A DNA stretch of 64,000 bases from an uncultured Acidobacteriota bacterium (GCA_963777605.1 CAVZRV010000013.1:1-64000); one strand, 5' to 3'; counted from the first letter of the stretch, positions 7,921 to 25,740 are shown. Program-made: numbers and translations. Notes: generated from the sequence alone by a model not told the origin.

Positions 7921-10900
7921 ATGAAACAGCTCAGCCTTTTGTCGATCGCTTTGTTGGTCTTGATGGCGTCGGTTGCGGCCGAAACCCGCTATGTCGATTC
8001 CAAGAACTCGACCGGAACGACACCTTTCGGCTCCTACGAAGGAACGATGGAAAACATCGACCTCCGCAATCAGAACCTGAATATCGTGATTCCGCTCTTC
8101 ACGCAGAAGGGGCGGAACGGGCTCGATTACTCGGTTGTGACCTATTACAACTCGAACTATCGAGTCTGGCAGCCGATTCCGGACGATTACACGCCGCCCA
8201 CCTATGAACTGGTCTGGGTGGGCGATCCAGACGCCTATTTTCAACTGAAGCCGAGCGCTACCCTCAGCTACCGGGACGAGATCTATCTGGATGGCGGCAC
8301 CGAACTGCACACGAACCGGTACATTCTGACCGATATTGACGGCACCCGGCATGAGTTCGGAGTGCAGCCGTCGGCGGGCGATGTCTACGGAGGGACCTGC
8401 AACAATCTCGAGACCTTCCGCACGACCGACTCGAGTCACATGAAGCTTCAGGAGATTGTCGACAAGATGCACGTCGTGATCTATCAGAAGGACGGCACCG
8501 AGTTGGACTTCTCCACGACGACGCTCGGCTGGAACTACAAGCTGAACTGGATCCGGGACACCAACGGCAACAAAATCACGTTTCAGTATAGCGTCCCGCG
8601 AGACACCTACACGTGCGGATTCCTGGTGACCGACACGCTCGGCCGGGAGGTTTGCTTCCGGTACTCCTCAGGAGATCCGGAGATCCTGGTCGAAGAGTAC
8701 AGCGGAAGCGAAAGCGTGTATCGGCTCAAGGATCGCATGTCGTCAACGAGTGAAATCGAGTTGCCTCCGGGTGATGTGAATCGCAACGATGCCATGCGGT
8801 ACGAAGTCCAGTACCAAACCACCAGTCAGCTGTGTGATCCTGACAACTACTGCACCAGCGCCTACGGTCCCGAAATCAAGCTTGACGTCCTCACGTATCC
8901 GACCGGTGGAACTACGAACTATAACTGGGAGTTGGGAAAGCTCATCGGCGAAAGCCCGCAACGCCTTTCCCAGAAAGTGGTCGATGCCGACGACGGCCAG
9001 GGCACGGGGACCTGGGACTACGACCGAATCGCAGGCAGTACGCAGGTCACTCGCCCGGACCAGACCTATCACAAACACTACTTCTCCGTCCTGCCCGGCT
9101 TCACCACCTTCGAGAAGGAAGACAAGGTCGAATACTACGAGTCGGTCGGAACCAAGAAGCGCACGATCGAGAAGACCTGGGATCAACGCTTCGGAGACCC
9201 ACGGGTGACCGAGACCAAGATCACGCTCGACAACAACTACCAGTCGAAGACGGTTCAGGTCTACGACCAGCAAGGCTACTCATCGGCACTTGGGAACCTG
9301 ACCAACGGCAACGTGATCGAGACACGGGAGTACGCCTGGGGCTCTGGGGCTCCGGGGTCCCTGGTCCGGAAGACGACCCGGTCCCATCTGAATACGACCA
9401 GCTACAACGTATCGAATCTGCACATTTTGGACCGGATCACCGACGAAAGCGTCTACGACTCCGCCTCGGTGAAGAAGGCCCAGACCACCTACTTCTACGA
9501 CAACTACTATTCTCCCCGGACGCTCCTGTCCGCCTCGGGCGTCGTCCAACACGACACGGCCTCGTTCGGAACCGGCTACACGACGCGTGGAAACCTGTAT
9601 CGAATCGGCCGCTGGCTGAACTCTCCCTCTTCGACGCTCTATACCTACTTCCGGTACGACATCTGCGGCAACGTGCGGGAAGAGACCGACCCGCGCGGAT
9701 ACACCTCGAAGATCAACTACAACAGCACGTATCAGTATGCCTACCCATACTGGCTGGAGGATGCGGCCGGATTCGACACTTACCGGGAATACTTCTTCGA
9801 CAACACGAACCAACGCGGGTTCGGCTACCTGAAGCGGGAGACCGACATCAACAGCAACCAGACCGATTACACGTATGACGTCTTGGGTCGGATCAAGACG
9901 GTCACCTACCCGGACGGAGGGCTGGTCACGAATTACTACTCGGACCGGGACCTGGAGGACACGCATGCAACCGTCGACGTCTTCACCGACCAGACGTCGG
10001 TCTTTCCACCGCGCATGAAGACCTACACGCTGATTGACGCCACGCCCAATCCCGACTTGAAGCGCGTTCAGATTCACACGTTCGACCTTCTGGGCCGGGT
10101 GAACCTGGAAGGCATCATGAACGGGACGAACGTCGATTGGACCTGCACCCGTTTCGACGCAACCGGGCGGATCCAGAAAGTGAGTAACCCCAGAACGCTC
10201 TCCTACACCACGGAGGAACCCGGCTATGCGAACTTCAACAAGTGGACGACAAATGAGTACGACAGCCTGGACCGGATCACCGAGATTGAGACCCAGGACA
10301 ACCAGGTGGTCACCATCAACTACTCCGGGTATCAGAAGACGGTCAGCGACCAGGCCTCGATGCAACGGCGGGTTAACTACGACGCCCTCGGGCGGATCTC
10401 GAGCGCCGTCGAACCGAATCTCAATAACAACACGTTTGACGCGGGAGCGGTCACAACCAGCTATGCCTATGATGTTCTGGATAACCTGACAGGGGTTACT
10501 CAGGGCACGCAGACGCGCAGTTTCGTCTACGATAGCCTGAGCCGGCTGACCTCGGAGACAAACCCGGAATCGGGCACGACCACGTACACGTACGACTCGA
10601 ACTCGAACTTGACCCGCAAGACGGATGCCCGAAGCGTGCAGACGAACTACAATAGCTATGACGTGCTCAATCGTCCGGCATCGATCAGCTACTCCGACAG
10701 TACCCCAACCAGCAGCTTCACCTATGACTCCACGCTTGTAACGAACGGAAAAGGGCGCAGAACCGGCATGAGCGACGGAGTCGGTAGTTCAACGTTCCAC
10801 TACGATTCCATGGGACGAACCACCAAAATCGTCCGAGCCATGACCGGCGGACCGAGTATGACTGGGGATTTCGTCTACAACAAGCTGGGCGGGCTGACCG

Positions 10901-12669
10901 AATCGAAGTGGCCTGGTATCTACGACTACGGAGCCAACCCACTGGGGCTCTACTGGAGTTACGACAACGCCGGCCGCCAGCAGACCGCCAAATGGAGCAA
11001 CAACGGCGGAAGCCCGGGAGGGACGGCCTACCAGGAACTGGTCGACAATTACACCTTCACCTACGCTTCGACCAACCCGTATGCCACCGAAACCATCACC
11101 TATGATGGATCGACCAACGGCACCATCGAGACGGTTACTTACAGCGACCGCCTCCAGCCCACGGGACGCACGGTCAAATACGGCAACCAGTCACTGTTCG
11201 ACCAGATCGTCCACTTCAACCCGAGTGGTCAGAACAAGAACAACGGCAACGTCTGGTACGTCGACGATCAGGTCGATTCGACACACGGGGACATGTCGTA
11301 CGACTACGACTACTGGAACCGGATCTCATCGTTCAAGATCGCCGGGATTACGAATCAGACCTATGCCCGGGATCGGTGGGGCAACAGCACGGCGTACGGC
11401 TTGTCATTCAACAGTGCGACCAACCGGATCACGACGACCGGCTACAACAGCTACGATTCGGCGGGCAACCAGCTCGGTCTTCCGAGCTTCACTTTGCAGT
11501 ACGACGGAGCAAGCCGGATCAAAACGGTCAACAGCGGCACGACCGCAACCTACTCGTATGATGGCGACGGGCGACGGGTGAAGAAAGTCTCCGGGGGAAC
11601 GACGCGTTACTACTTCTACGATCCCGAAGGACACGCGATCTGGGAGTACCAGGTCGGCGTGGGTTGGGAGACCTTCAACCTCTTCTTCAACGGCCGGCAC
11701 GCGGCGGTCAATAACACAACCGAAGGGCTTCGCTGGCGCCATCTGGATCATCTCGGCAACCTGAGGCTGAAGACCGACAACACCGGCCAGGCGAGATGCT
11801 ATTACTACTACAAGCCGTACGGTGAGATCAGCTACAAGAGCTGCACCGAAGCCGACGACTACTGGTTTACCGGAAAGGAACGGGACGCTGAAACCGGGCT
11901 CGACTACTTCGGCGCCCGCTACCACGGCAGCGCCATCGGTCGGTTTACTTCGGTGGATCCGATCGGAGGCTTCACGGAGGTTCCGCAGAGTCTGAACAAG
12001 TATGCCTACGGGCTCAATAACCCTCTGCGATATGCGGATGCGGACGGACAGTTTGCTGTGCCGGTCATCCCTCTCGGTGGAATCTTGATTGGAGGTGTTT
12101 GGGGTGGAATCGATGCCTATATAAACCAAACCGGATACGGAAAAGGCATTTTCTCCGGAGCAATGGGAGGACTGGCCGCGTCGATGACTTATCCTTGGAA
12201 TCCCATATATGCAGGCGCCATCACAGGTGGTGTGACGAATATCAGCGGTCAGCTATACGATACAGCCTTCACAGAGAAGACCTGGAGGGACATCGATCTC
12301 GTCTCCTTGGGTATTGATACCACGATGGGCGCACTCATTGGTCGAGTCCTTGGACCCGTAACCACTAGCATTCAGCGGTGGAAGTGGCAGGGACTGATTC
12401 CTCCACGGCCAGGACCTGGATTGGTACCCGCGCGATTTACCACATACTATGGCCCGAAGGCCAAGGATCTTCACAGGGCGTTCGGGCTATCTGGTTTCTT
12501 TGGCAGTTCCTATCACATGGCGACTCACGAGATTGGATCGACCTATACTCCAGCGGATCTTTCTAGCTATCGGCTGCGATTGTTGGAGGGAATCGCAAGA
12601 GGGAGTCAGTTGCGACCGGACGTGCGTATCGGTGAGATCACGTATGGTCCTCTGCCATACGATGAATAG
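7921..12669 (+). CDS. RHS/YD-repeat protein with Sec-type signal peptide and a Gly-rich hydrophobic C-terminal (putative toxin) domain
   Basis: Many YD repeats, core FTGKERDAETGLDYFGARY and cleavage motif NPLRYADADG (tip starts ~12049). N-terminus MKQLSLLSIALLVLMASVAA. Confidence 0.93.
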   Translation: MKQLSLLSIALLVLMASVAAETRYVDSKNSTGTTPFGSYEGTMENIDLRNQNLNIVIPLFTQKGRNGLDYSVVTYYNSNYRVWQPIPDDYTPPTYELVWVGDPDAYFQLKPSATLSYRDEIYLDGGTELHTNRYILTDIDGTRHEFGVQPSAGDVYGGTCNNLETFRTTDSSHMKLQEIVDKMHVVIYQKDGTELDFSTTTLGWNYKLNWIRDTNGNKITFQYSVPRDTYTCGFLVTDTLGREVCFRYSSGDPEILVEEYSGSESVYRLKDRMSSTSEIELPPGDVNRNDAMRYEVQYQTTSQLCDPDNYCTSAYGPEIKLDVLTYPTGGTTNYNWELGKLIGESPQRLSQKVVDADDGQGTGTWDYDRIAGSTQVTRPDQTYHKHYFSVLPGFTTFEKEDKVEYYESVGTKKRTIEKTWDQRFGDPRVTETKITLDNNYQSKTVQVYDQQGYSSALGNLTNGNVIETREYAWGSGAPGSLVRKTTRSHLNTTSYNVSNLHILDRITDESVYDSASVKKAQTTYFYDNYYSPRTLLSASGVVQHDTASFGTGYTTRGNLYRIGRWLNSPSSTLYTYFRYDICGNVREETDPRGYTSKINYNSTYQYAYPYWLEDAAGFDTYREYFFDNTNQRGFGYLKRETDINSNQTDYTYDVLGRIKTVTYPDGGLVTNYYSDRDLEDTHATVDVFTDQTSVFPPRMKTYTLIDATPNPDLKRVQIHTFDLLGRVNLEGIMNGTNVDWTCTRFDATGRIQKVSNPRTLSYTTEEPGYANFNKWTTNEYDSLDRITEIETQDNQVVTINYSGYQKTVSDQASMQRRVNYDALGRISSAVEPNLNNNTFDAGAVTTSYAYDVLDNLTGVTQGTQTRSFVYDSLSRLTSETNPESGTTTYTYDSNSNLTRKTDARSVQTNYNSYDVLNRPASISYSDSTPTSSFTYDSTLVTNGKGRRTGMSDGVGSSTFHYDSMGRTTKIVRAMTGGPSMTGDFVYNKLGGLTESKWPGIYDYGANPLGLYWSYDNAGRQQTAKWSNNGGSPGGTAYQELVDNYTFTYASTNPYATETITYDGSTNGTIETVTYSDRLQPTGRTVKYGNQSLFDQIVHFNPSGQNKNNGNVWYVDDQVDSTHGDMSYDYDYWNRISSFKIAGITNQTYARDRWGNSTAYGLSFNSATNRITTTGYNSYDSAGNQLGLPSFTLQYDGASRIKTVNSGTTATYSYDGDGRRVKKVSGGTTRYYFYDPEGHAIWEYQVGVGWETFNLFFNGRHAAVNNTTEGLRWRHLDHLGNLRLKTDNTGQARCYYYYKPYGEISYKSCTEADDYWFTGKERDAETGLDYFGARYHGSAIGRFTSVDPIGGFTEVPQSLNKYAYGLNNPLRYADADGQFAVPVIPLGGILIGGVWGGIDAYINQTGYGKGIFSGAMGGLAASMTYPWNPIYAGAITGGVTNISGQLYDTAFTEKTWRDIDLVSLGIDTTMGALIGRVLGPVTTSIQRWKWQGLIPPRPGPGLVPARFTTYYGPKAKDLHRAFGLSGFFGSSYHMATHEIGSTYTPADLSSYRLRLLEGIARGSQLRPDVRIGEITYGPLPYDE

Positions 12670-12678
12670 GAGCCTGAG

Positions 12679-13536
12679 TTGACCCACAGGAACCGTCCAG
12701 AGAGAGAGCCGCCTGCGATCGGAGCAAATGGGTCGTTGTTTGTGATCTTGCTCGTTGACGCATTCTTCCTTTGGATGCCTTGGGTTGGAGGGCAGGCGAT
12801 CCGTGACGTGGCTTGGACAATAGCAGGAGCGCTCACTGGTTCCTCGTTGGCAGTGGCATACTTTATGTGGAAGCCACTGAATCTATTCTCAAACAACGCG
12901 TATGCTCCCAAACCTCTTTCTTCGCTCACGTCAGGAGAGTTGAAGGCGTTAGCCTTTCTCAATAGCTCGGCAGGAAGGTTGGCCGTCCTAAAGTACATCG
13001 CACAAGTCCCGGTTGCCGCCGTTTTCGGAGCAATGTTATCCACAATGGGATATGTCCTCATTGTTGAAGATCCGCCGACTCCCGTTGAGCTTAACCGGAA
13101 TCTGTTTGCATATGTGTTGCCGATGGTTTTGGTAAGTTTTCTCACGAGTTCTGTGATGTACTTTGCAGCGGTTGCAAGGGCTGTAAGGACCCACTGGGAT
13201 TGGATCCTCGAGCACCAACCGCTTCCGAGCGCCAAGGTGTTGGCCAAGTATGCTGGTAGAAACGAAGAAGTGGGTCACTGGGATCATCTTTACGGGACAG
13301 AATTCTCCGAGGAGCTGAACCGGGCGCTCGAAGGCCGGCCGGGGAGGGGATTCTGGCGGGTGATGCTGCAACTGCTGGGGGGAGGGGCGGCCGCCCTGGT
13401 CCTCTTCCGTCTCATCTCGGGAGGCGTACCGGAGGACCGGCGTGTAGGTGCATTGATAATACTCGCCGTGGGCCTGCTCATCTACTGGTTGGCGGGTATA
13501 TATCTCGGAGCCGAAGACTCCGACGAGGACCGATGA
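12679..13536 (+). CDS. Multi-pass membrane protein, putative immunity protein
   Basis: Starts 9 bp after the RHS stop, has several hydrophobic segments and visibly lower GC. The function is inferred from position. Confidence 0.6.
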   Translation: MTHRNRPEREPPAIGANGSLFVILLVDAFFLWMPWVGGQAIRDVAWTIAGALTGSSLAVAYFMWKPLNLFSNNAYAPKPLSSLTSGELKALAFLNSSAGRLAVLKYIAQVPVAAVFGAMLSTMGYVLIVEDPPTPVELNRNLFAYVLPMVLVSFLTSSVMYFAAVARAVRTHWDWILEHQPLPSAKVLAKYAGRNEEVGHWDHLYGTEFSEELNRALEGRPGRGFWRVMLQLLGGGAAALVLFRLISGGVPEDRRVGALIILAVGLLIYWLAGIYLGAEDSDEDR

Positions 13537-13994
13537 TGGAATGGCCGGGCCCGGAATCCTTTGTTCCATACTACGATCCCGAAGGGAACGCGGCCTGGGA
13601 ATACAAGGTCGGCACCGGTTGGGAGACCTTCAACCTCTTCTTCAGCGGGAAGCACGCGGCCGTCAACAACACGACCGAGGGCCTCCGCTGGCGGCATCTC
13701 GATCATTTGGGCAACCTGGTCCTGAAGACGAACAACGTGGGCAGTGATGTCTGCCGCTACTACTACAAGCCGTACGGCGAGCTGAACTCCCGCACCTGCA
13801 CGGAAGCCGACGACTACAGGTTCACCGGAAAGGAGCGGGACGCCGAAACCGGCCTGGATTACTTCGGAGCCCGCTACCACGGCAGCGCCATCGGCCGGTT
13901 CACCTCGGTCGATCCCTTCCGTGAGAGCGCGGATCCTGCCAACCCTCAGAGTTGGAATCGGTACGCGTACACGCTGAATAATCGGTCGCGGTAG
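13533..13994 (+). pseudogene. Orphan RHS core fragment closely resembling ~11615-12020, truncated before the cleavage site
   Basis: YDPEG..WEY.VG.GWETFNLFF...FTGKERDAETGLDYFGARY...YAYTLNN, then abuts the group II intron 3' end. Confidence 0.85.
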
Positions 13995-14242
13995 GGACGG
14001 CCATTGCTGACCGCCCCCCGCACAGATCCGTACGTGCGGAGCTACCGCATACGGCTCCTGCCTAAGGTCGTGACGCGAAGAAACGCTCCTCCGGATAGGG
14101 ATGCAGAACCCGGCATGGCGGGACGTACTTGCGGGTGAGGCGATTGAAACGGGTCCAGTTGAGTCGGTGCCGTTGACTTCGGCGCAGCAGGGCATGCGGC
14201 CACGCGCGGCCGACCTCGCTTCAAGAGAACTTCCAACCGCAC
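13985..14242 (-). mobile_element. Internally deleted group II intron remnant
   Basis: The minus strand has domain V GAGCCGTATGCGGTAGCTCCGCACGTACGGATCTG and a domain VI/3' end ...TCCCTACCGCGAC. These follow a maturase C-terminus (RRSQRHRLNWTRFNRL...HPYPEERF*). A GTGCG 5'-like motif sits at 14242. Confidence 0.85.
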
Positions 14243-14498
14243 TTTCGCTGTCTGTCGTCCGCAACTCCCTTAATCGTGCGCGTGCAGCTCAATTGCGCGG
14301 CTCTCCGCATGAGAGGTCAGGCGAAGGGACTCGAGAGGCCGTAACACGGAGCCTCGACAAATCGATGAGCTTCGCTGCCGATTGGGAAGCTTCTCCGACG
14401 ACACCTTGTATCCCCCGTTCCTGTTCCCTCATCCATAAACGTGCCCCATCCATAAACGTGCCCCTCCAGCCGAGAGAGCTTGTTGCCGCTGACCAAAA

Positions 14499-16080
14499 GA
14501 CCGTATCTCGTCACCCCTCTCATTTACGATAGCTTTCGCCGGGAAGGTTGTGTCTGGTTATCGAGTTTTTGCCGCCAACGGCACCCGCCGCTTCGGGACG
14601 AAACGGAGCGGGCTTTCCGAACCGGGACGGTTCGGCGTTGGAAAACGTCAACGGTTCCGATTGTTCGGAGGTTCGCTTCCATGGGAAACACGTTTAATGC
14701 CTTTGATCCCCTGTTTTACGCACAAGAGGCCCTGATTCTGCTCGAAAAAGCCCTTGGCCTGGCCGGTCGCGTCCACCGCGGCTACAGCAAGGACCCGCAG
14801 CAGAAGGGCTCCACGATCGAGATCCGCAAGCCGTCCACGTTCACGGCGCAGGATGCCCCGTCCAACGCCCAGGATATCGACGCGCCGAAGCTCTCCATCG
14901 TCCTCAACAAGTGGAAAGAAGTGAAGTTCACCCTCACCGACAAGGAGATCAACGCCACCGGTGAAGACATCATCGAGGAGCATATCCGGCCCGCAGCCTA
15001 CGCGATCGCCAACCAGATCGACATGGAGCTGGCAGACCTCTACCGGATGGTTCCGTGGTATGTCGATGCCCAGGCCAATGTCGATCTCAAGGACGTGACC
15101 TTGCCGCGCCAGATCCTGTTCGATAACGGCGTGCCGATGGACCCGACGATGCTTCATTTCATGATCGACGGGGCACTCGAGGCCGGGTTTTTGACCCTGA
15201 CAGCGTTCTCGCAATTCCAGGGCGCGGGCCTTGAAGGCGTCGCCGCACAGCAGACGGGTTCGCTTGGGCGGAAGTTCGGAATCAATATCTTTGCGAATCA
15301 GAACACTCCGTCTCACGTGAAGGGAACCTGCGACGACCCGGCCCTTAAGATTACCGACAATCCGGCGGCAAGGGTGCAACGGCTGTCAACCTTGCGGCAG
15401 TGGATGGGACGATCTACGACCGCTACGGCAACCGGCTGAGCCAGTCGGGATCGGGAGGCGTTCCGACCGAGACTCTCACGATCAGTACAACCACAAACCG
15501 CGTGAGCGGCTGGACGTACGATGCGGCCGGCAACGTCACCAACGACGGCACGCACACCTATGCCTACGATGCCGAAAACCGCTTGATCAGCGTCGATGCG
15601 GGAGTCACCGCCACCTACGCCTACGGCCCCAACGGCGAACGGGTCTGGAAGGTTGCCGGAGGCGTGACGACCTACTACTACTGGGGGATCGGCGAGAAGG
15701 TCTCGGGCTCCTGGACGAAGTTCTTCGTCTCGGGGCTCGGTGGTAAGCTGGTCGAGTACAGCAGTTCGACGACGAAGTTTTTTCGTCACCAATCATCTCG
15801 GCAGTGTGGCGGCGCGCATGGATGTCAGCGGAACCCTCAGCGAAACCTATCGCTATCTCCCGTTTGGAGAACTGTTTGCGGGGACTGCGACGCCCCACGA
15901 GTTTACCGGCAAGGAGAGGGACCAGGAGTCCGGCCTCGACTACATCGGGGCACGCTATCTGGCGTCCAATCACGGTCGATGGATGAGCGTGGATCCGGTC
16001 ACGGGAAGTTCGAGCAACCCGCAGCGGTTCAATCGATATTCGTACGTGGGTAATATTCCAACCATGCTCGTTGATCCGAC
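14499..16080 (+). repeat. Copy 1 of a ~1.6-kb duplicated unit (leader + capsid segment + RHS core); copy 2 is ~20880-22465
   Basis: Near-identical sequence from GACCGTATCTCGTCACCCC through the capsid segment and RHS repeats, diverging toward the DPxG site. Confidence 0.9.
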
Positions 16081-16720
16081 CGGTCGGGAGTGGGAACTTG
16101 TATATGTCATCAAGACTTATTACAGAGAGTTGCTCGAGATGTACGTGACAGAGGTGACTCATTTCTTGAAGTGGGTCCCCCCAAGAACCAAGCAGACTTT
16201 TGAACCGTGGGAACAGGAACATCATGTCGGGGGCAAATCTAAACCTCCGGAATCTGAAACGCCGACTAACTGTGCCAATCAATTCCAGGAGTTCCTGGGA
16301 TTTCTCGGCCATAACCCGAATGATCTCACTCAAGACGGTAAAGACTTCATCTCGGCACTTACTTGGGCGATCACTCATTCGGATGAGATCCAGGTGATCT
16401 CTTCGAAGTATTTTATCGATAACTATGGTGAGAAGGATACTCTATCGGATGGAAAGACTTACAACACTGGATCCTTCTTCCAGTATGGGATTATTTGGTA
16501 CTGGGAAGATTACGTTCGCACGTATCTTGGTGCCATTGGAATTGACGAGGAACGCCAGATGTCAGCGATGTTCCTGCATGAATTGACTCATGCAGGAATG
16601 CGTGGAACAAAACTAGACAAAGTATACGATGACGCGGCTAATGAGGCTTTCGCCAAGGAAGCTGTGATACAATACGAGCTGTTTCTTGACCTAACCAATA
16701 AGGTACCTTGCAAGCCATGA
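14681..16720 (+). CDS. P22-like major capsid (N-terminal ~245 aa)::RHS core::HExxH toxin fusion, copy 1 (1-bp indels at ~15369 and ~15780)
   Basis: Capsid-like motifs as in copy 2, joined at GACGATC|TACGACCGC to RHS YDRYGNR. Core TGKERDQESGLDY, VDPTG, and a tip containing FLHELTH. Confidence 0.8.
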
Positions 16721-17289
16721 AACGCGTAATTTTAGCCTTCGTAGTTATTCTGTCTTGGTACACGAGCCTCGCCTATGTGATTGGGGCCCCATCATCAGAG
16801 TGGAAAGAAGCGTGGCAAGTCGAGGGTATCAGGGCTATCCGACGTCATTCATTTCGAATTCTTCGCCTCAGTTGTTCGCCTGCAAAGTGCGAGGAGACAT
16901 CCGTGGGCATTCGAATTCCTGACCTCTCAGCTGAAATGGTACTGAATGTAACCTGGAATTCTTGGCCGCTGGATGAAGAGTATCCTACAAAGTACACCCT
17001 TTCTCCTTTTGCAGTCACAGTTGCCGCCGTGTATATGCCTGAGACAATGACCTTACGAATCGTACACGCCTGGCCACCTTCAGGATCAACGATCGAGGTG
17101 GTGGGAATTATTAACAGTGCATTCCTTACCTCAACAAAGAGAGTGTTTACAACTGGGCTCGATGCACTGACGGTCCAAATGGAAATCGCCAACTCTAATG
17201 GGGAGACCGAGACGGTTGAATTCCTGATTGTCCCACGGGATGACAATGGACGTCTCTTAGGCCGTTGGCGCCCGAAAAGCGCTGATTAG
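16717..17289 (+). CDS. Exported putative immunity protein
   Basis: ATGA overlap with the toxin stop, signal peptide MKRVILAFVVILSW, lower GC. Confidence 0.65.
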   Translation: MKRVILAFVVILSWYTSLAYVIGAPSSEWKEAWQVEGIRAIRRHSFRILRLSCSPAKCEETSVGIRIPDLSAEMVLNVTWNSWPLDEEYPTKYTLSPFAVTVAAVYMPETMTLRIVHAWPPSGSTIEVVGIINSAFLTSTKRVFTTGLDALTVQMEIANSNGETETVEFLIVPRDDNGRLLGRWRPKSAD

Positions 17290-17534
17290 CTCAACCAAGC
17301 CTGCAAATTGCACGGACGGTGCGGTGCCCAGTCCGAAAGCGTGTCAGGCCAAAGGAATTCAATAGTCGGCGCGACACTCCAGGTAGGCGACACTGGTTTC
17401 GACCATTCAAAGAGGTGGCCGCCCGTTTGCCTCCCATTTTGGTGGTGAAGGTTTGGTAAAGTTTCGTATCGGTCGGCCCGTCGCTGCTCCGCGTAACGGG
17501 CTGATATTGTTAGTGTTTGGTCTTGTTTGGTAGG

Positions 17535-17593
17535 GGCGGCGTGGCTTTCTGCAAAACCTTTATTCAGCGGTTCGAATCCGCTCGCCGCCTCCA
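17535..17593 (+). pseudogene. tRNA-Cys(GCA) remnant / att-like site lacking the D-arm
   Basis: GGCGGCG pairs with CGCCGCC-T-CCA, anticodon loop CTGCAAA, T-arm AGCGG-TTCGAAT-CCGCT. Only 59 nt long. Confidence 0.75.
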
Positions 17594-17631
17594 ACCGACC
17601 ACTGGACCAGCTCGTCCTGTGGGAGTTCAAC

Positions 17632-18337
17632 CTACTCCGGCATCTCGTCCCAGGTCCTTCCTTCGAGTACGCGGCCGGCCTTCTTCTTGTCGACGCCACC
17701 CCATTGCTTGAAGAAGAAAGCCACGTCGGAGGCGACGCATTGATCGCGGATCTCGGTGACCCATTCCGGATCCATCCGTCGGGCGCCGGGGCCGGATTCT
17801 CCCCCGACGATGACCCAGTCGATGCCTTCGAGGTTCAGGCTGGGGAGTGGCCCAAGGAGGGGTTCAAGGGAGAGGAACTTGATCGCTGCATGGGTCCCGC
17901 GCGAGATCGTCGATTCGATGGGTGTATCGGGACGTCTCGACACTCACTCCCATCCAGATGTTCTCACTCCAGGACAGTTCTTCGTCCAGTGCGCTCAGCC
18001 GTACGGATCGCTTCGTCAGAACCTGAAAGCGATGCCAGTCGGCCGCCCGCATGACCGCGAAAACGCGTTGAATGTACTCGACCGGGACGTCCCGGTGAAA
18101 AAGGTCGCTCATTGAGTTCACGAAGACCGTCTGGGATCGCTTCCAGGTGAGGGGCAGCGTCAGGGCATGAGGATGAAGCGTGACTTCGAAGCCGTTGGCA
18201 TAGTTGGGTTGCCCCATCGCCCGAAGCCGTTTGGCCATGCGCTCGGCATAGCAGTGCTTGCAACCCGGGCTGATCTTGTCGCAGCCGGTCAACGGGTTCC
18301 AAGTGGACTCGGTCCATTCGATTTTCGATTGTGCCAT
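17632..18337 (-). CDS. DUF5131 (phage Gp37/Gp68-like) protein, frameshifted near ~17900
   Basis: [61 protein letters not shown] and FFFKQWGG. Confidence 0.9.
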
Positions 18338-18421
18338 GGTTCTAGTCTCGAAGAATGTACTGTGCAATCTTCACGGCCGTCTTTGCGCCTCTCTCATTCG
18401 CAGCGGCGAAGCACAAGAGAT

Positions 18422-19828
18422 ACAGCGGAAACCAGTGCCTGGAGCCTCTCCTGGGTCTATGACCGCTACGGCAACCGACTGAGCCAGTCGGGATCGGGCG
18501 GCGTGCCGACCGAGAGCCTCACGATCAGTACGACGACGAACCGCGTGAGCGGCTGGACGTACGACGTGGCCGGCAACGTCACCAACGATGGCACCCATAC
18601 CTATGCCTACGATGCCGAAAACCGCTTGATCAGTGTCGATGCGGGAGTCACCGCCACCTACGCCTACGGCCCCAACGGCGAACGGGTCTGGAAGGTTGCC
18701 GGAGGGGTCACGACCTACTACTACTGGGGGATCGGCGAGAAGGTCTCTGGCTCCTGGACGAAGTTCTTCGTCTCGGGGCTCGGTGGTAAGCTGGTCGAGT
18801 ACAGCAGTTCGACGACGAAGTTTTTCGTCACCAATCATCTCGGCAGTGTGGCGGCGCGCATGGATGTCAGCGGAACCCTCAGCGAAACCTATCGCTATCT
18901 CCCCTTCGGCGAGCGCTACGCCGGGACGCACACCACGCATCAGTTCACGGGCAAGGAGCGGGACGCCGAATCAGGGCTCGACTACTTCGGGGCACGGTAT
19001 CTGGCGTCAACCCATGGCCGCTGGATGAGCGTGGATCCGGAAATGGGAGACCCCCAGAATCCGCAAAGGTTAAACAGATACGCGTATGTACTGAATGATC
19101 CCATCAAGTATGTTGATGCCGATGGACGTACGGAATGTTTTCCTTTGCCCGACGGCACTGTTGTTTGCGACGATTTAGGACGAATAACAGTCTTTGGAAG
19201 CCTCAGCGGTATATTGGGCGGAGTCGCCAATAGTTCCGTAGCGCCCCTAAGACCGCGTCGGCCGCCGGAGGCACTCAAGGAAAATAGCACATCAGGGTTG
19301 CTGACTTGGCTAACAATGGATCGCGTATCAACTACTTTTGACAGTCCATTCATGGGACCATGCCTGATAAGTGAAATCTATGATCCGACGGGTTCCACAA
19401 TCGGTCGCAACCATCCCGCAGTCGACATAAGCGCGAACGACGCCTTTGACAACATTATCGGAGGAGGTCCTCTACGTGGATTTGGTACACCTGTGGGCGC
19501 AATCGGGGGAGGAAGTGTCACGGAGATCGGGACGCAACCAGGAACAAACGTGAATTACATCAAGATTTACGATAAGGCTAACGACATCGAATTGTCGTAC
19601 ACCCATGTTACTGCCTCCCAAGGATTGCATATAGGTCAACAGGTCCACACCGGCCAGCATCTTGGAGTGATCGACGACAGCGGCGGCGTAGACCTCGCCC
19701 ACCTTCACTTGGTATTTCGGTTCGGTGACAACCCTTCACCTGGACCCGGTTTCCCAAGTGTTGGTGACAAGTTTGACCCGGAGCCGTACCTGCCATGCGA
19801 GCGAAAGCCCGGCTTGAGTAGTCCATAG
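18422..19828 (+). CDS. Orphan RHS core + M23/LytM-like peptidase toxin tip (5'-truncated, no evident start)
   Basis: Same RHS segment as in the capsid fusions, VDADG cleavage site at ~19126, and a tip with HPAVD (HxxxD), YTH and HLH (HxH). Confidence 0.85.
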   Translation, partial: TAETSAWSLSWVYDRYGNRLSQSGSGGVPTESLTISTTTNRVSGWTYDVAGNVTNDGTHTYAYDAENRLISVDAGVTATYAYGPNGERVWKVAGGVTTYYYWGIGEKVSGSWTKFFVSGLGGKLVEYSSSTTKFFVTNHLGSVAARMDVSGTLSETYRYLPFGERYAGTHTTHQFTGKERDAESGLDYFGARYLASTHGRWMSVDPEMGDPQNPQRLNRYAYVLNDPIKYVDADGRTECFPLPDGTVVCDDLGRITVFGSLSGILGGVANSSVAPLRPRRPPEALKENSTSGLLTWLTMDRVSTTFDSPFMGPCLISEIYDPTGSTIGRNHPAVDISANDAFDNIIGGGPLRGFGTPVGAIGGGSVTEIGTQPGTNVNYIKIYDKANDIELSYTHVTASQGLHIGQQVHTGQHLGVIDDSGGVDLAHLHLVFRFGDNPSPGPGFPSVGDKFDPEPYLPCERKPGLSSP

Positions 19829-19858
19829 GTTCGCCAACAAAGACAGTTGGAGTAGAGT

Positions 19859-20374
19859 ATGAATCTCTTCGTCTCCACCGCGTTGACAGGGTTCTTGAGT
19901 TTAGTTTGCTTCGGTCAGCCTATGCCAGGTCAAGATCAGCAACTGGAAAGTCTACGGGAAACCGCCGTTCAGTTGGAGGGGATCCTGAGACACAGGAATT
20001 TTGATGAGTTCCTCAAGAATGTTAGTCCTCGACCGTTACGAGTTGGATTTGATTACTATGTCTCAAGGCTGGATCTAGAAGATGATTTTAGAGAAAAGGA
20101 TGGTATTGTTTTTAACATCCTGTTTGGCGACCAGACATCGCTCTATGATGTGATAACCAAGAGAACCGACGTTAAGTTCGTAGCGAGTCTTCAGCGAAAG
20201 GCGAGTAACGACACCACGACAGGCAGAATTATCCCGGGAGATTACTTGCTCAATTCCGGCACAATCTTGATCAGATGGGATGACTCTCCAACTGCCGAGG
20301 GCTTTACAGAGTTTCCGAGTTTCTCGATGGTCTTTCTTAACCACCGTTGGCTGATTGGCGCTGTGGATTTCTGA
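19859..20374 (+). CDS. Exported putative immunity protein
   Basis: Directly follows the M23 tip; signal-like N-terminus MNLFVSTALTGFLSLVCFG; low GC. Confidence 0.6.
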   Translation: MNLFVSTALTGFLSLVCFGQPMPGQDQQLESLRETAVQLEGILRHRNFDEFLKNVSPRPLRVGFDYYVSRLDLEDDFREKDGIVFNILFGDQTSLYDVITKRTDVKFVASLQRKASNDTTTGRIIPGDYLLNSGTILIRWDDSPTAEGFTEFPSFSMVFLNHRWLIGAVDF

Positions 20375-21062
20375 GTACTTTTTGCCGCTCGGAATAGACT
20401 GATGCAGCGTTGTTCGGATTTTCCAAGGTGCCAAACGTATTGACAGCGAAAGTGAACATTCCAGGAGTTGTCGAACAATCGGCAGTATCTCGTCTTGTCT
20501 ACTCCTTCTCGTCCAAGATCACCTTTGCTGGGAAGTTTGTGTTTGAACTCTACACTTTGATCGGCAGTCTGTTCACGATTGCAGTTTCGCCTCTGATCGG
20601 GGGAGATCCTCTTTGGGTGGTTGTGCTGTTATCCGTTGTCTGGATGAATATCCGGTCCTTCCTCTTCAACAGGATGAGGGAAAAGGAGTATGAAAGCGTA
20701 TGCCCGATCCACGAATCCAGATCGCGAGTAACGAAGTTGGACAAGGACCGGCCATTGGCCGTGCAGTCTGGCCCCCTGAGAAATCTGCCCCGAAATTCGG
20801 GGGCGTTGAGAAACGCCCCCGTCGCCTCACACTCAAGAGTGCCTCACCATCCGAGCGCGACAAGTAAACTCGACCAGTTGACCGTATCTCGTCACCCCTC
20901 GCATTTACGATAGCCTTCGCCGGGAAGGCTGTGTCTGGTTCCTGAGTTCTTTGCCGCCAACGGCACCCGCCGCTTCGGGACGAAACGGAGCGGGCTTTCC
21001 GAACCGGGACGGTTCGGCGTTGGAAAACGTCAACGGTTCCGATTGTTCGGAGGTTCGCTTCC

Positions 21063-23111
21063 ATGGGAAACACGTTTAACGCCTTTGATCCCCTGTTTTA
21101 CGCACAAGAGGCCCTGATTCTGCTCGAAAAGGCCCTTGGCCTGGCCGGCCGCGTCCACCGCGGCTACAGCAAGGACCCGCAGCAAAAAGGTTCCACGATC
21201 GAGATCCGCAAGCCGTCGACGTTCACGGCCCAGGATGCTCCGTCCAACGCGCAGGATATCGACGCGCCGAAGCTCTCCATCGTCCTCAACAAGTGGAAAG
21301 AAGTGAAGTTCACGCTCACCGACAAGGAGATCAACGCCACCGGTGAAGACATCATCGAGGAGCATATCCGGCCCGCCGCCTACGCGATCGCCAACCAGAT
21401 CGACATGGACCTGGCGGACCTCTACCGGATGGTCCCCTGGTACGTCGATGCCCAGGCCAATGCCGATCTCAAGGACGTGACCTTGCCGCGCCAGATCCTG
21501 TTCGATAACGGCGTGCCGATGGACCCGACAATGCTTCATTTCATGATCGACGGGGCACTCGAGGCCGGGTTCCTGACCCTGACGGCCTTCTCGCAATTCC
21601 AGGGCGCGGGCCTTGAAGGCGTCGCCGCACAGCAGACGGGTTCGCTTGGGCGGAAGTTCGGAATCAATATCTTTGCGAATCAGAACACACCGTCTCACGT
21701 GAAGGGAACCTGCGACGACCCGGCGCTTAAGATTACCGACAATCCGGCGGCCAAGGGTGCAACGGCTGTCAACCTTGCGGCAGTGGATGGGACGATCTAC
21801 GACCGCTACGGCAACCGGTTGAGCCAGTCGGGATCGGGAGGCGTACCGACCGAGTCCCTCATGATCAGTACCACCACAAATCGTGTGAGCGGCTGGACGT
21901 ACGATGCCGCCGGGAACGTCACCAATGATGGCACCCACACGTACACTTACGACGCCGAGAACCGCTTGCTCAGCGTCGATGCGGGAGTCACCGCGACGTA
22001 CGCCTACGGTCCCAACGGCGAGCGGGTCTGGAAGATTGCCGGAGGCGTGACGACCTATTACTACTGGGGAATCGGCGAGAAAGTCTCGGGCTCCTGGACC
22101 AAGTTCTTCGTCTCGGGCCTGGGTGGTAAGCTGGTCGAGTACAGCAGTTCGACGACGAAGTTTTTCGTCACCAATCATCTCGGCAGTGTGGCGGCGCGCA
22201 TGGATGTCAGCGGAACTCTCAGCGAAACCTACCGCTATCTTCCGTTTGGGGAACTCTATTCCGGGACCGCAACCACCCACGAGTTCACCGGCAAGGAGCG
22301 GGATCAAGAATCAGGACTCGATTACTTCGGGGCACGCTATCTGGCGTCCAGTCACGGGCGGTGGATGGGTGCAGACCCGGAATTGGGCAAGACCAGCAAC
22401 CCGCAGCGATTGAATCGGTATGCATACGTTCTCAATGATCCAGTCAACTATGTCGATCCGGATGGTCAAGATGAAATCGAGTTCATCGAACACACTCAAG
22501 CCGGTTGGAGAGATTTCTTCTCAATTAGGATTTTCGTCTACTCTACGGCGCGCAACCCGTGGGGTCGAGGAGGTGGGGATAGCCCTTTCGGCGGCGCGAC
22601 GGGTGAGGGTATCAAGGATTTTCTTAAGAACATGCTCCACCGCAAGTCCTTTGAGGACAAAGTGGATGACGCGCTCTCCGTTCTACAGAGGAGACTGGCC
22701 GAGGGTCTTCTAAAGCCTGATTGTCAGGATATCTTCACCACGTTGGGCGTTGATTCGCAGGCCTTTACGACCAAATTGGGAGAGATAGACTTCATAGACG
22801 GAACAAAGAGTCCCACCATGCTAACCGAGGAGTTCACGGCGGAGCAGATCTGGGACAATGGCTATTCGGCAGAGTGGACCTTTGCTGACCTCTTCAAGAA
22901 CGCCGGCCCATCGGTTGCCGCAATTTCCCCGCCTCTGGGTGACAATATTTACCTTCGCCCCGGACTGATCCGGCCGGGGCAGCTCGGACATGAGACCTTC
23001 CATAAGTTCGACAAGGTAGATCCAGACTTGTTACAGGAGAAGTGGGGTCTTGATCCGAATGGACCATCTGAGCAGTTCAGCAAGTATTTTTCGGAAAAAT
23101 GCCTGACATGA
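21063..23111 (+). CDS. In-frame fusion: P22-like major capsid N-terminal ~245 aa + short RHS segment/core + HExxH toxin tip (682 aa)
   Basis: Capsid-like QEALILLEK.L.LAGRVHR.Y, KGSTIEIRKP, IRPAAYAIANQID and GSLGRKFGINIFANQN. Then YDRYGNR..., FTGKERDQESGLDYFGARY, NDPVNYVDPDG and a tip with GHETFH. Confidence 0.85.
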   Translation: MGNTFNAFDPLFYAQEALILLEKALGLAGRVHRGYSKDPQQKGSTIEIRKPSTFTAQDAPSNAQDIDAPKLSIVLNKWKEVKFTLTDKEINATGEDIIEEHIRPAAYAIANQIDMDLADLYRMVPWYVDAQANADLKDVTLPRQILFDNGVPMDPTMLHFMIDGALEAGFLTLTAFSQFQGAGLEGVAAQQTGSLGRKFGINIFANQNTPSHVKGTCDDPALKITDNPAAKGATAVNLAAVDGTIYDRYGNRLSQSGSGGVPTESLMISTTTNRVSGWTYDAAGNVTNDGTHTYTYDAENRLLSVDAGVTATYAYGPNGERVWKIAGGVTTYYYWGIGEKVSGSWTKFFVSGLGGKLVEYSSSTTKFFVTNHLGSVAARMDVSGTLSETYRYLPFGELYSGTATTHEFTGKERDQESGLDYFGARYLASSHGRWMGADPELGKTSNPQRLNRYAYVLNDPVNYVDPDGQDEIEFIEHTQAGWRDFFSIRIFVYSTARNPWGRGGGDSPFGGATGEGIKDFLKNMLHRKSFEDKVDDALSVLQRRLAEGLLKPDCQDIFTTLGVDSQAFTTKLGEIDFIDGTKSPTMLTEEFTAEQIWDNGYSAEWTFADLFKNAGPSVAAISPPLGDNIYLRPGLIRPGQLGHETFHKFDKVDPDLLQEKWGLDPNGPSEQFSKYFSEKCLT

Positions 23112-23626
23112 GATCCGAGAGAGTCTTCTATCCTTTATTGTTACTCAGTGCCCTGGTGGTACCGGGAACGGTCGGATTGGCCGTCCAGAATGAGGACCCC
23201 TCGGTCGTTCCATATAGGATTGTCTTGGAGCGTCAGCCCGACTTGCAGAATTCCGTTTACCAGGGATACGCAGCAGACATCAGAGTCGAGGATTGGATGA
23301 GCCGGCAACAGATTGAGACGCTGGTTTGCCACGCACTCAGAGACCGGTTACCAAAGTTTTATGACGGAGTCACTGTCCATATTTGGTGGCGACGGGTGAT
23401 TTTCGATATTGCGGGTAATCGCAATCCCGAGGCTACGGAACACATTGTCGCTGCGTATCATTGGTCCGCCAAGATGCGACCTGGTCGGTTGGTCATATGG
23501 CATGACCAGGATGGAAACCGGATTAGGAATGACGGTGTCACTTTCGATCACCTGAAGGAATGCGGGATTCCTGCGCCGCCGGTTTCTCCACCGGCGAAGC
23601 CCGACCTAGATTCTGTAAACCGTTGA
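23108..23626 (+). CDS. Exported putative immunity protein
   Basis: ATGA overlap with the fusion stop and a hydrophobic signal (FYPLLLLSALVVPGTVGLA). Confidence 0.65.
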   Translation: MRSERVFYPLLLLSALVVPGTVGLAVQNEDPSVVPYRIVLERQPDLQNSVYQGYAADIRVEDWMSRQQIETLVCHALRDRLPKFYDGVTVHIWWRRVIFDIAGNRNPEATEHIVAAYHWSAKMRPGRLVIWHDQDGNRIRNDGVTFDHLKECGIPAPPVSPPAKPDLDSVNR

Positions 23627-24576: not shown

Positions 24577-24719
24577 TTCACTGCCCTCGGCACTCCTGTC
24601 ATAGCTGTAGCTTTCGGATTGAGAGACCGGCACTGCCAAGTTAACGGGTATCGAGCTCCGCGGAAGAGTCTACGGACTTTGGCACGCCCCAAAACGGGAT
24701 GATCCAGGCGATTCAGGAC

Positions 24720-24858
24720 CAGGTCAATCCCAACTACTCGGAGACCTATCAGCTACGATGATCTCTACCGGCTCGCTTCAGCCGAGACCAGCGTCTGGAG
24801 CCTCTCCTGGGTCTATGATCGCTACGGCAACCGGTTGAGCCAGTCGGGATCGGGAGGC
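24720..24858 (+). pseudogene. RHS remnant (5' piece)
   Basis: Encodes SYDDLYRLASAETSVWSLSWVYDRYGNRLSQSGSGG, homologous to ~18422-18505. Confidence 0.8.
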
Positions 24859-24940
24859 CCGTTCGAAGTTCGAGGTTCCTCGTTCAACGTGGCACGATCG
24901 TTCAGTCGGCACAGCCCGTAAGACCTCCGCGAGATGATCT

Positions 24941-25228
24941 TCAGGCCACGGAGAGCTTCCGAACCTTGAGTTCGGAACGGCGCTGTTCGGCTCGCCAGAG
25001 GTCGTATTGAGCCTGCTGCCGGAGCCAGCTTTCGGCAGACGTCTCAAAGGCGATCGAAAGGCGGACCGCCATCTCGGGGCTGATGCCTGCTCGGCCGTTC
25101 ACGATGGCAGACAAGGTCTTGCGACTGACCCCGAGCGCCTCGGCGGCCTCGGTCACCGAGAGCCCCAGTGGCTCCAGACAAAGCTTCTTCAGAATCTCGC
25201 CCGGATGCGGTGGGTTATGCATCAGCAT
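24941..25228 (-). CDS. higA: HigA-family antitoxin
   Basis: [11 protein letters not shown]...[35 protein letters not shown]...W...Q..YDLW. Confidence 0.92.
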
Positions 25229-25241
25229 GCTGTCTTCACCT

Positions 25242-25520
25242 CTAATGGTAGTCTTCATAATCAACGGCCTCCGCGCCGTTTTCCGTGAAACGAAACGTCA
25301 CCCGCCAGTTGCCGCTGACCTTGACGGACCAGATCCCCTTTCGGTCACCGCTGAGCTCATGGAGAGACAGCCCAGGTAATCGCATGTCGCGAGGTGACGC
25401 TGACGCCTGCAGCCGGCCCAGGATCAACCGAAGCTTCGCGGCATGGTGCGCCTGTATGCTGGCTCCGCTGCCGGTCAGGAAGAACCGCTCCAAGCCCTTG
25501 TGGGAGAAGCTTCGAATCAC
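25242..25520 (-). CDS. higB: HigB (RelE/ParE-type) toxin
   Basis: [13 protein letters not shown]...[26 protein letters not shown]...VDYEDYH; toxin-first gene order. Confidence 0.92.
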
Positions 25521-25526
25521 GTACCT

Positions 25527-25555
25527 AGTGTAACCTGGTACGGGTCGGGTTACAA
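25527..25555 (-). promoter_or_regulatory. higBA promoter (leaderless) with palindromic operator
   Basis: Minus strand reads TTGTAA, 17 nt, TACACT, 6 nt, GTG. The inverted repeat TGTAACC...GGTTACA spans 25529-25554. Confidence 0.6.
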
Positions 25556-25597
25556 TCCCCTTGGAAAAGGCCACCCACCGAGTCGCTTTCATACCGA

Positions 25598-25740
25598 GGA
25601 TCGCCGGAGGGATCACCACGTACTACTACTGGGAAACGGCAAGGAGCGGGATGCCGAATCAGGCATCGACTACTTCGGAGCGCGGTACCTGGCGTCGAAT
25701 CACGGGAGCTGGATGAGCGTGGATCCCGCTTTGGGAAACA
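25598..25740 (+). pseudogene. RHS remnant (3' pieces fused by deletion)
   Basis: An IAGGITTYYYW segment is joined directly to GKERDAESGIDYFGARYLASNHGSWMSVDP. Confidence 0.8.

Follow-up and report, generated by a model that had tools for sequence, protein, structure and literature searches.

A 64,000-nucleotide stretch of DNA from an uncultured Acidobacteriota bacterium (GCA_963777605.1, CAVZRV010000013.1:1-64000), referred to here as the window, carries an Rhs array in which two orphan cassettes are chimeras of a phage capsid gene fragment and an Rhs core fragment. The array consists, in order, of a full-length rhs gene, a short orphan of the same clade, and four 5′-truncated core fragments that belong to another Rhs clade (Table 1). 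The two chimeras, which we call copy 1 and copy 2, are among these four fragments and share one layout: about 190-310 nt of non-coding sequence, 245 capsid codons, the last ~215 codons of the Rhs core, a tip that is unrelated between the copies, and a small open reading frame (ORF) overlapping the end of the tip. The full-length rhs gene of the array shows 42% amino acid identity to the Rhs part of copy 2 and belongs to a separate Rhs clade; the full-length member of the second clade is found on contig C30, in an open frame of 1904 codons whose DNA is 88-91% identical to that of the fragments.

Copy 1 (14499-16047) and copy 2 (20880-22429) are 93.1% identical across 1554 aligned columns. In both, the capsid and Rhs parts are joined at the same base and in frame, the sequence reading GTGGATGGGACGATC on the capsid side and, directly after it, TACGACCGC on the Rhs side. 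5′ of the joint the copies match Pfam family PF11651 (P22 coat protein) over profile positions 11/12-223/225 of 423, with E values of 3e-18 and 9.6e-18. 3′ of the joint, an RHS repeat is accompanied by the Rhs-associated core domain in full (TIGR03696, positions 1-76 of 76; residues 392-469 of copy 2), and the homology of copy 1 to the main rhs gene of C30 starts at position 15413. An earlier note on this DNA had described an identical junction followed by different tips and immunity genes, and this description stands: the two tips are unrelated (BLASTP E = 23), as are the ORFs downstream of them (E = 6.2), and the tip swapping that it proposed is likewise supported.

The two copies differ in the state of their reading frames. 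Copy 2 is a single ORF of 682 amino acids (21063-23111), while copy 1 as assembled is divided by two frameshifts into three ORFs (14480-15439, 15400-16053 and 15740-16720). Both frameshifts fall in short homopolymer runs, and the extra T at ~15775-15780 is absent from all six of the other paralogues. The rpoB (partial, at a contig start, 1031 amino acids), rpoC (1394 amino acids) and dnaE (1210 amino acids) genes each form one open frame, so the assembly is unlikely to be generally frameshift-prone, although repeats are harder to polish. A search of public sequencing runs for the source reads turned up none that contained the stretch, the best share of sampled words being 0.14.

Neither chimera retains the full YD-repeat shell of over 1000 residues; only ~215 core residues are present, starting ~0.8 kb before the end of the C30 core. 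No N-terminal trafficking or secretion domain was recognized, the N-terminus being the capsid fragment (PF11651) with no match to any other family. What is present is the layout of an orphan rhs C-terminal toxin (rhs-CT)/immunity locus, namely a 5′-truncated core, a variable tip and a downstream small ORF, all preceded by a full-length rhs gene; the toxin and immunity roles are putative. Relatives of tip 2, 43-44% identical, occur on ordinary Rhs proteins, align to query residues 246-681 only and conserve the HExxH motif, and the sequence suggests that tip 2 is a metallopeptidase-like toxin. Sequence searches of the PDB with tip 1 and tip 2 returned nothing usable.

The genome has only one other copy of the capsid gene, and it is unfused. 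This gene, on contig C51 (~64998-63850, minus strand), shares 98-99% protein identity and 94% DNA identity with the fused copies (94.3% between copy 2 20749-21794 and C51 65316-64267), and the homology stops exactly at the joint. It matches PHROG 283 (E = 1.9e-45) and has tRNA-Met downstream of it, together with genes whose matches are to a phage tail tube or a minor tail protein. An IS6/IS240-type transposase fragment precedes the C51 capsid gene, cutting its upstream side at ~65350, and the gene is split by a frameshift between residues ~262 and 294. The source prophage itself looks defective.

Full-length relatives of the capsid protein are 375-399 amino acids long, and some carry source names as P22-type major capsid proteins of Acidobacteriota. 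A structural model of a 379-residue full-length homologue (predicted local distance difference test score, pLDDT, 90) was identified by Foldseek as an Sf6/P22-type coat protein (E = 2.6e-19) and superposes on the Sf6, P22 and CUS-3 coats, with 5l35, 8i1v and 5uu5 among the PDB entries matched; a sequence search of the PDB with the capsid homologue gave no match. The joint corresponds to about residue 243 of the 379-residue model, and 11 of its 21 strands (the E252 to E378 region) are missing from the chimera. Judged by the model, the capsid fragment of the chimera is only about 64% of the protein and an incomplete HK97-type fold.

The fused architecture was not found in any other sequence searched. 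Among 60 relatives, none matched the capsid part (long query, E <= 1e-10), and one unpublished genome matched in the Rhs part only. The species-representative genome collection yielded no relative, and capsid relatives in metagenome and viral contigs were at most 53% identical. The best 120 of 1982 protein hits included none that spanned both halves, those judged capsid-type being at most 61% identical. A degenerate junction pattern had no match in the species-representative genomes or in the metagenome and viral contigs, and no Rhs fragment was present at 14 distant capsid loci. Environmental pieces from four soil or mangrove runs include Rhs sequence, unfused, that extends up to the joint on its right side, and capsid sequence of the C51 kind that continues past 15366; none of the 27 listed, of 36 in all, bridges the joint, which is no evidence either way. 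No close capsid allele that might serve as outgroup or donor was found in the genome, metagenome and viral collections searched or among the protein hits judged capsid-type. Among the papers listed by a full-text literature search, none describes a capsid-Rhs chimera, to judge by titles and abstracts.

Divergence between the copies is distributed as a mosaic. In total 108 of 1551 aligned columns differ, with 7 differences in 70 positions of the distal leader, none in 130 positions of the proximal leader and start of the coding sequence (14568-14697; 113 nt of leader and 17 nt of coding sequence), 23 in 508 (4.5%) in the 5′ part of the capsid segment, 4 in 256 (1.6%) in an island around the joint, and 74 in 587 (12.6%) in the Rhs part. 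The contrast between capsid and Rhs divergence is strong (p = 2e-6), and such non-uniformity is unlike that of two copies merely diverging after a duplication. The distance between copy 2 and C51 is U-shaped, at 13-17% at the 5′ edge, 0.9-4% mid-block and 29% by the joint. Such a shape is expected if intact alleles convert the segment repeatedly and the tracts rarely reach the ends of homology: the interior would be overwritten, and edges beside non-homologous DNA would keep the sequence of the original donor. Over the last 41 nt before the joint the two copies have no differences from each other and 12 from C51, which argues for a single origin of the joint.

The distribution of private sites among the three capsid sequences also switches sharply along the fragment. 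Up to codon 134 there are 12 sites private to copy 1, five to copy 2 and five to C51, with one more site private to copy 2 at codon 156; from codon 159 on the corresponding numbers are 4, 0 and 25. The maximum chi-square for this change is 24.9, with a break near 21587-21590, a value reached by none of 10,000 permutations. Among 55 differences between the copies in the Rhs arm, both states occur in other paralogues at 31, and the state of copy 1 is found elsewhere at 49. The Rhs arm of copy 1 is a patchwork, lying within 0-4 differences per 60 nt of three other orphan fragments in turn (cassettes C14a, w18 and C14b; see below and Table 1), and 55% of the pairs among 35 informative sites in the Rhs alignment fail the four-gamete test.

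Taken together, we consider it likely that copies 1 and 2 are orphan cassettes of the Rhs C-terminal toxin/immunity type, lying in an Rhs array that has been rearranged, and that the chimera in their 5′-truncated core is a by-product that was fused once and then copied, with both of its arms overwritten. A single illegitimate event would have joined codon 245 of the capsid gene of a P22-type prophage, in frame, to an Rhs core ~0.8 kb before its end, and the capsid segment would have brought its own leader, ribosome-binding site and ATG. The joint was then probably copied to a second cassette through homology on both sides, that of the leader and capsid on the left and that of the Rhs core on the right; copying driven by homology on both arms would explain how an identical joint can be found with different tips. 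Specifically, a few sites suggest that a cassette resembling C14a received the capsid-plus-joint segment through recombination, on one side in the leader and on the other in the Rhs core. Repeated homologous recombination or gene conversion would have followed, with intact phage alleles acting on the capsid arm and Rhs paralogues on the Rhs arm. This order of events and this direction of conversion are the ones we infer, and the chimeric protein itself would be without a function. The immunity ORFs may nevertheless be of use, and the phage leader may be where their transcription starts.

Several observations weigh against this history. Copy 2 is a clean 682-codon ORF with GGAGG 9 nt before its ATG, and the chance of an in-frame joint is ~1 in 3. 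The copy 1 frameshifts are read from the assembly. The limits of the divergence zones were picked after seeing the data, and the contrast between the island around the joint and the 5′ part of the capsid segment is weak (p = 0.04). A PHI-type permutation test of the Rhs alignment found no dependence of incompatibility on distance (p = 0.86), which counts against a simple tract model. For the 15 private synonymous variants of copy 1 and the 6 of copy 2 no donors were found, C51 being the only other copy in the genome, and environmental contigs carry the state other than that of copy 1 at the four copy-1-private sites listed (15190, 15191, 15202 and 15205). Among three sequences without a close outgroup, the lineage that recombined may be any of them; C51 may itself be the mosaic, which would explain part of the pattern. 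Finally, the leader is kept in four cassettes through two types of junction, which could reflect selection for the leader.

This second type of junction is new here. The genome contains five copies of the ~200-nt capsid gene leader: at C51, in copy 1, in copy 2, and twice on the 7.7-kb contig C14, where it heads two further Rhs orphans (minus strand, ~6858-5097 and 3874-2593). In these cassettes (C14a and C14b) the leader is joined to the Rhs core with almost no capsid coding sequence, only ~55 nt separating the capsid ATG from the Rhs homology, and the core fragments start ~170 nt further upstream in the core than those of copies 1 and 2. In C14a the Rhs part is read in a different frame from the capsid ATG; in C14b it shares its frame with a GTG located where the leader ends. 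C14a is closest to copy 1 in the distal leader (3/70 differences vs 7/71 between copies 1 and 2), in the Rhs part and in the beginning of the tip, and homology of copy 1 to C14 continues as far as 16213. The first 298 nt of C14 are 100% identical to the inside of the C30 rhs gene, so C14 is a repeat-bounded piece of another array.

Within the leader, an 83-nt core shows no difference between C51, copy 1 and copy 2, against 3 differences in each C14 copy, and the 112 nt directly 5′ of the copy 1 ATG have one difference from C51. The leader is thus near-invariant while synonymous sites alongside it differ by 15-29% (dS, the synonymous distance, 0.15-0.29 in the adjacent coding sequence). It folds better than shuffled sequences, modestly (z = -2.45), and the five copies are too alike for covariation. 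An Rfam scan of the leader gave only sub-threshold matches to Ms_IGR-7 (23-24 bits vs a gathering score of 45), and conservation of the leader does not extend to the upstream regions of the 14 distant capsid homologue loci. It may be a phage late-gene regulatory element. Matches to the leader lie at window positions 14568-14697 and 20950-21079, on C51 at ~65110-64982, and on C14 at ~3640-3560 and 6740-6660.

The occurrence of this leader on four Rhs orphans through two junction types, and its near-identity beside coding sequence of much higher dS, are what would be expected had a phage module been co-opted, the leader, with or without the capsid arm, giving the cassettes a promoter, leader and start under phage late-gene control, or the 0.9 kb of capsid homology letting excised cassette circles recombine into related phages and be carried along by them. 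Sequence has evidently been exchanged between phage and chimera capsid segments, and a circular-intermediate model for Rhs tips has been published (in the part of PMC2935791 drawn on here). However, one prophage insertion followed by two independent deletions yields both junction types without selection, and the simplest history of the two types is indeed one prophage remnant inside an orphan array and then two different deletions. The out-of-frame ATG of C14a also speaks against co-option, as do the lack of any promoter-like (sigma-70-like) site in a scan of 20350-21150, the lack of a joint-bridging piece among the environmental pieces listed, and the lack of an Rhs fragment at the 14 distant capsid loci. 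We therefore regard co-option as unlikely, and as quite unlikely the more specific proposal that the leader is a movable head through which orphan Rhs cassettes come under phage late-gene control, with cassette circles spreading through related phages. Were it true, the chimeric capsid-toxin and its immunity protein would be made only upon induction of, or infection by, a related phage, and the product could be an assembly poison or an abortive-infection module.

The substitution pattern bears on another alternative. Counted by the method of Nei and Gojobori, the 245 capsid codons of copies 1 and 2 differ by 23.0 synonymous and 2.0 non-synonymous changes (dS = 0.148; non-synonymous distance, dN, = 0.0036; ω, their ratio dN/dS, = 0.024), the two replacements being E/D at codon 116 and V/A at codon 134. 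With the one 1-bp indel of the alignment, this is exactly the count that the earlier note had given from a hand alignment, and the codon-based dN/dS that it called for is low. The note took the pattern as purifying selection on the fused protein. If that were so the chimera would be a functional polymorphic-toxin family, its capsid half a selected N-terminal domain on which tips are swapped; the in-frame joint, the intact copy 2 ORF with its ribosome-binding site, and the different tips and immunity ORFs of the two copies would all fit, as would ω itself over 245 codons.

That interpretation is not supported by the wider comparison. In the three-sequence comparison with C51, copy 1 has 15 synonymous private changes and one non-synonymous, and copy 2 has six and none. 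Since only 171 of 732 sites in the capsid fragment are synonymous, such near-exclusively synonymous change is not neutral decay in place, yet copy 1 is frameshifted twice as assembled. Rhs core fragments show ω of 0.007-0.098 in all 21 pairwise comparisons among copies 1 and 2, w18, the two C14 cassettes, the C30 main gene and a C30 orphan, orphan or main gene alike, and low ω is therefore the background of the family and not a property of the chimera. dS, moreover, is threefold apart across the joint (0.148 in the capsid part vs 0.434 in the Rhs part). The low dN/dS would then have come with sequence from the donors: these being functional genes, nearly all of the differences that they contribute would be synonymous, and the ratio would not speak for selection on the chimera. 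Considering also the incomplete coat fold, the loss of most of the Rhs shell and of any delivery domain, the absence of the architecture from all other genomes and collections searched, and the two C14 cassettes that retain the leader without the capsid coding part, we think a selected toxin family very unlikely.

The alternative that the earlier note had itself offered fares better in part. Conversion by, or uptake from, phage capsid alleles fits the 94% identity of C51, the end of homology at the joint and the chi-square break, but nothing found shows cassettes moving onto a phage. The search for intact capsid genes that it proposed gave one unfused copy, that of C51, which is itself frameshifted, and no close allele in relatives.

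An assembly artefact, with alleles of two strains merged or a repeat collapsed or expanded and the frameshifts being consensus errors, might be suspected in a 53-contig draft with 5.68% estimated contamination in which one end of the small contig C14 falls within sequence identical to the C30 rhs gene and both frameshifts fall in homopolymer runs, but it is very unlikely given that 6.4 kb of a single 214-kb contig separates the copies, with unique and different tips, immunity ORFs and a third orphan in between, that they differ at 108 of 1551 columns, and that rpoB, rpoC and dnaE are without frameshift.

By-product chimeras in overwritten orphan cassettes, the history that we favor, can be set beside known Rhs systems. 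For Enterobacteria, Jackson et al. (2009; PMC2935791) describe, in the part of that paper drawn on here, orphan arrays in which core and tip are decoupled, tips are displaced and conserved cores recombine, propose a circular intermediate, and note that, at a given locus, the core sequence attached to the tips is of one and the same clade. The corresponding part of Poole et al. (2011; PMC3150448) considers orphans to be a reservoir of tips and of expressed immunity genes, and reports that most orphan cdiA-CT genes lack initiation signals. The array described here resembles the enterobacterial rhs-CT orphans of those accounts in its truncated cores with DPxG, variable tips, small ORFs and position behind a full-length rhs gene. 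It differs in that the 5′ end of the core is fused in frame to 245 capsid codons and a leader, copy 2 having its own ribosome-binding site and ATG. Unlike what the same-clade rule of Jackson et al. would lead one to expect, the four orphans after 14499 belong to the clade of C30 (88-91% DNA identity) and not to that of the adjacent rhs gene (42% amino acid identity). Also unlike the enterobacterial arrays, this one has captured other gene fragments, such as the truncated DUF5131 gene beside w18.

Salmonella Rhs orphan toxins are, in the portion of Starsta et al. (2020; PMC7043789) used here, internally expressed in the manner of type II toxin-antitoxin modules, from promoters and a CTG start inside rhs. 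By analogy, a shell-less orphan of the present kind could be expressed within the cell and neutralized by its immunity protein; in contrast to the Salmonella orphans, the candidate signals here come from a phage capsid gene. With respect to P22/Sf6-type capsids of HK97 fold (PF11651), residues 1-245 are homologous, but the chimeras hold ~64% of the protein only, lie outside any phage structural module and are joined to an Rhs fragment.

These comparisons carry a warning for multi-copy families that recombine: paralogues can owe a very low dN/dS to functional donors, and the ratio is then silent on selection of the copy itself, a frameshifted chimera with ω of 0.02 being a case in point. They also indicate that an Rhs orphan array captures fragments of other mobile genes (capsid, DUF5131) and that a chimeric joint can spread while both of its flanks are overwritten. 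The picture of C-terminal displacement is thereby extended outside Enterobacteria, the source names of homologues pointing to Acidobacteriota. That one phage leader recurs on four orphan cassettes offers a testable lead to the way in which orphans might gain expression signals.

Table 1. Features of the Rhs array in the window (positions counted from the first nucleotide of the window)
Feature	Position	Strand	Remarks
Full-length rhs gene of the array	7921..12669	+	1582 aa; RHS repeats and Rhs-associated core domain
Orphan core fragment, clade of the window's own rhs gene	13533..13994	+	82-86% identical to 11616-11960
Copy 1, leader of phage capsid gene	14499..14680	+	Homology starts later than that of copy 2
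Copy 1, capsid codons 1-245	14681..15414	+	PF11651; lacks a base after 15368 that copy 2 and C51 have
Copy 1, Rhs core 3′ fragment to DPxG	15415..16084	+	VDPTG at 16070-16084; extra T at ~15775-15780
Tip 1	16085..16720	+	No family match; first ~130 nt common to cassette C14a
Putative immunity ORF 1	16708..17289	+	193 aa; overlaps tip 1 stop codon; no family match
Truncated DUF5131 gene	17864..18367	-	Profile positions 1-151 of 243; abuts 5′ end of orphan w18
Orphan w18	18425..19828	+	Rhs core fragment and peptidase M23 tip; no capsid part
Copy 2, phage intergenic region and leader	20749..21062	+	Longest stretch in common with C51
Copy 2, capsid codons 1-245	21063..21797	+	In frame with Rhs part
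Copy 2, Rhs core 3′ fragment	21798..22466	+	Complete Rhs-associated core domain; DPxG as VDPDG at 22452-22466
Tip 2	22467..23111	+	HExxH motif (GHETFH)
Putative immunity ORF 2	23099..23626	+	175 aa; overlaps tip 2 stop codon
Degenerate orphan w24	24644..25737	+	Core homology at 24644-24858 and 25637-25737, interrupted in between

The capsid joint is not the only one in the array, the truncated DUF5131 gene being set against w18, and an apparent remnant of a group II intron and an IS66 element are likewise present in the window. An intact DUF5131 copy of 243 amino acids is found on contig C6, with 91% DNA identity and with helicase, helix-turn-helix (HTH) and HerA/TraG-like genes as neighbors. 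The M23 tip of w18 (noted within 18167-19828) suggests a cell-wall hydrolase toxin, as far as its family assignment goes. Between the first orphan and copy 1, the sequence at 13985-14059 on the minus strand scores 41.8 bits against RF00029, the catalytic domain of group II introns (gathering score 40), and looks like a remnant of a truncated intron. A repeat of 45-53 nt at 17548-17600 recurs with 96-100% identity on contigs C8, C9, C11 and C35, with several of the occurrences at the ends of contigs or close to them; it probably represents either a small mobile repeat or one end of an insertion sequence. The IS66-family transposase gene lies at the very start of the contig (3-1997, plus strand) and is 96-97% identical to a copy at C30 397096-399125, which sits just downstream of the C30 Rhs locus.

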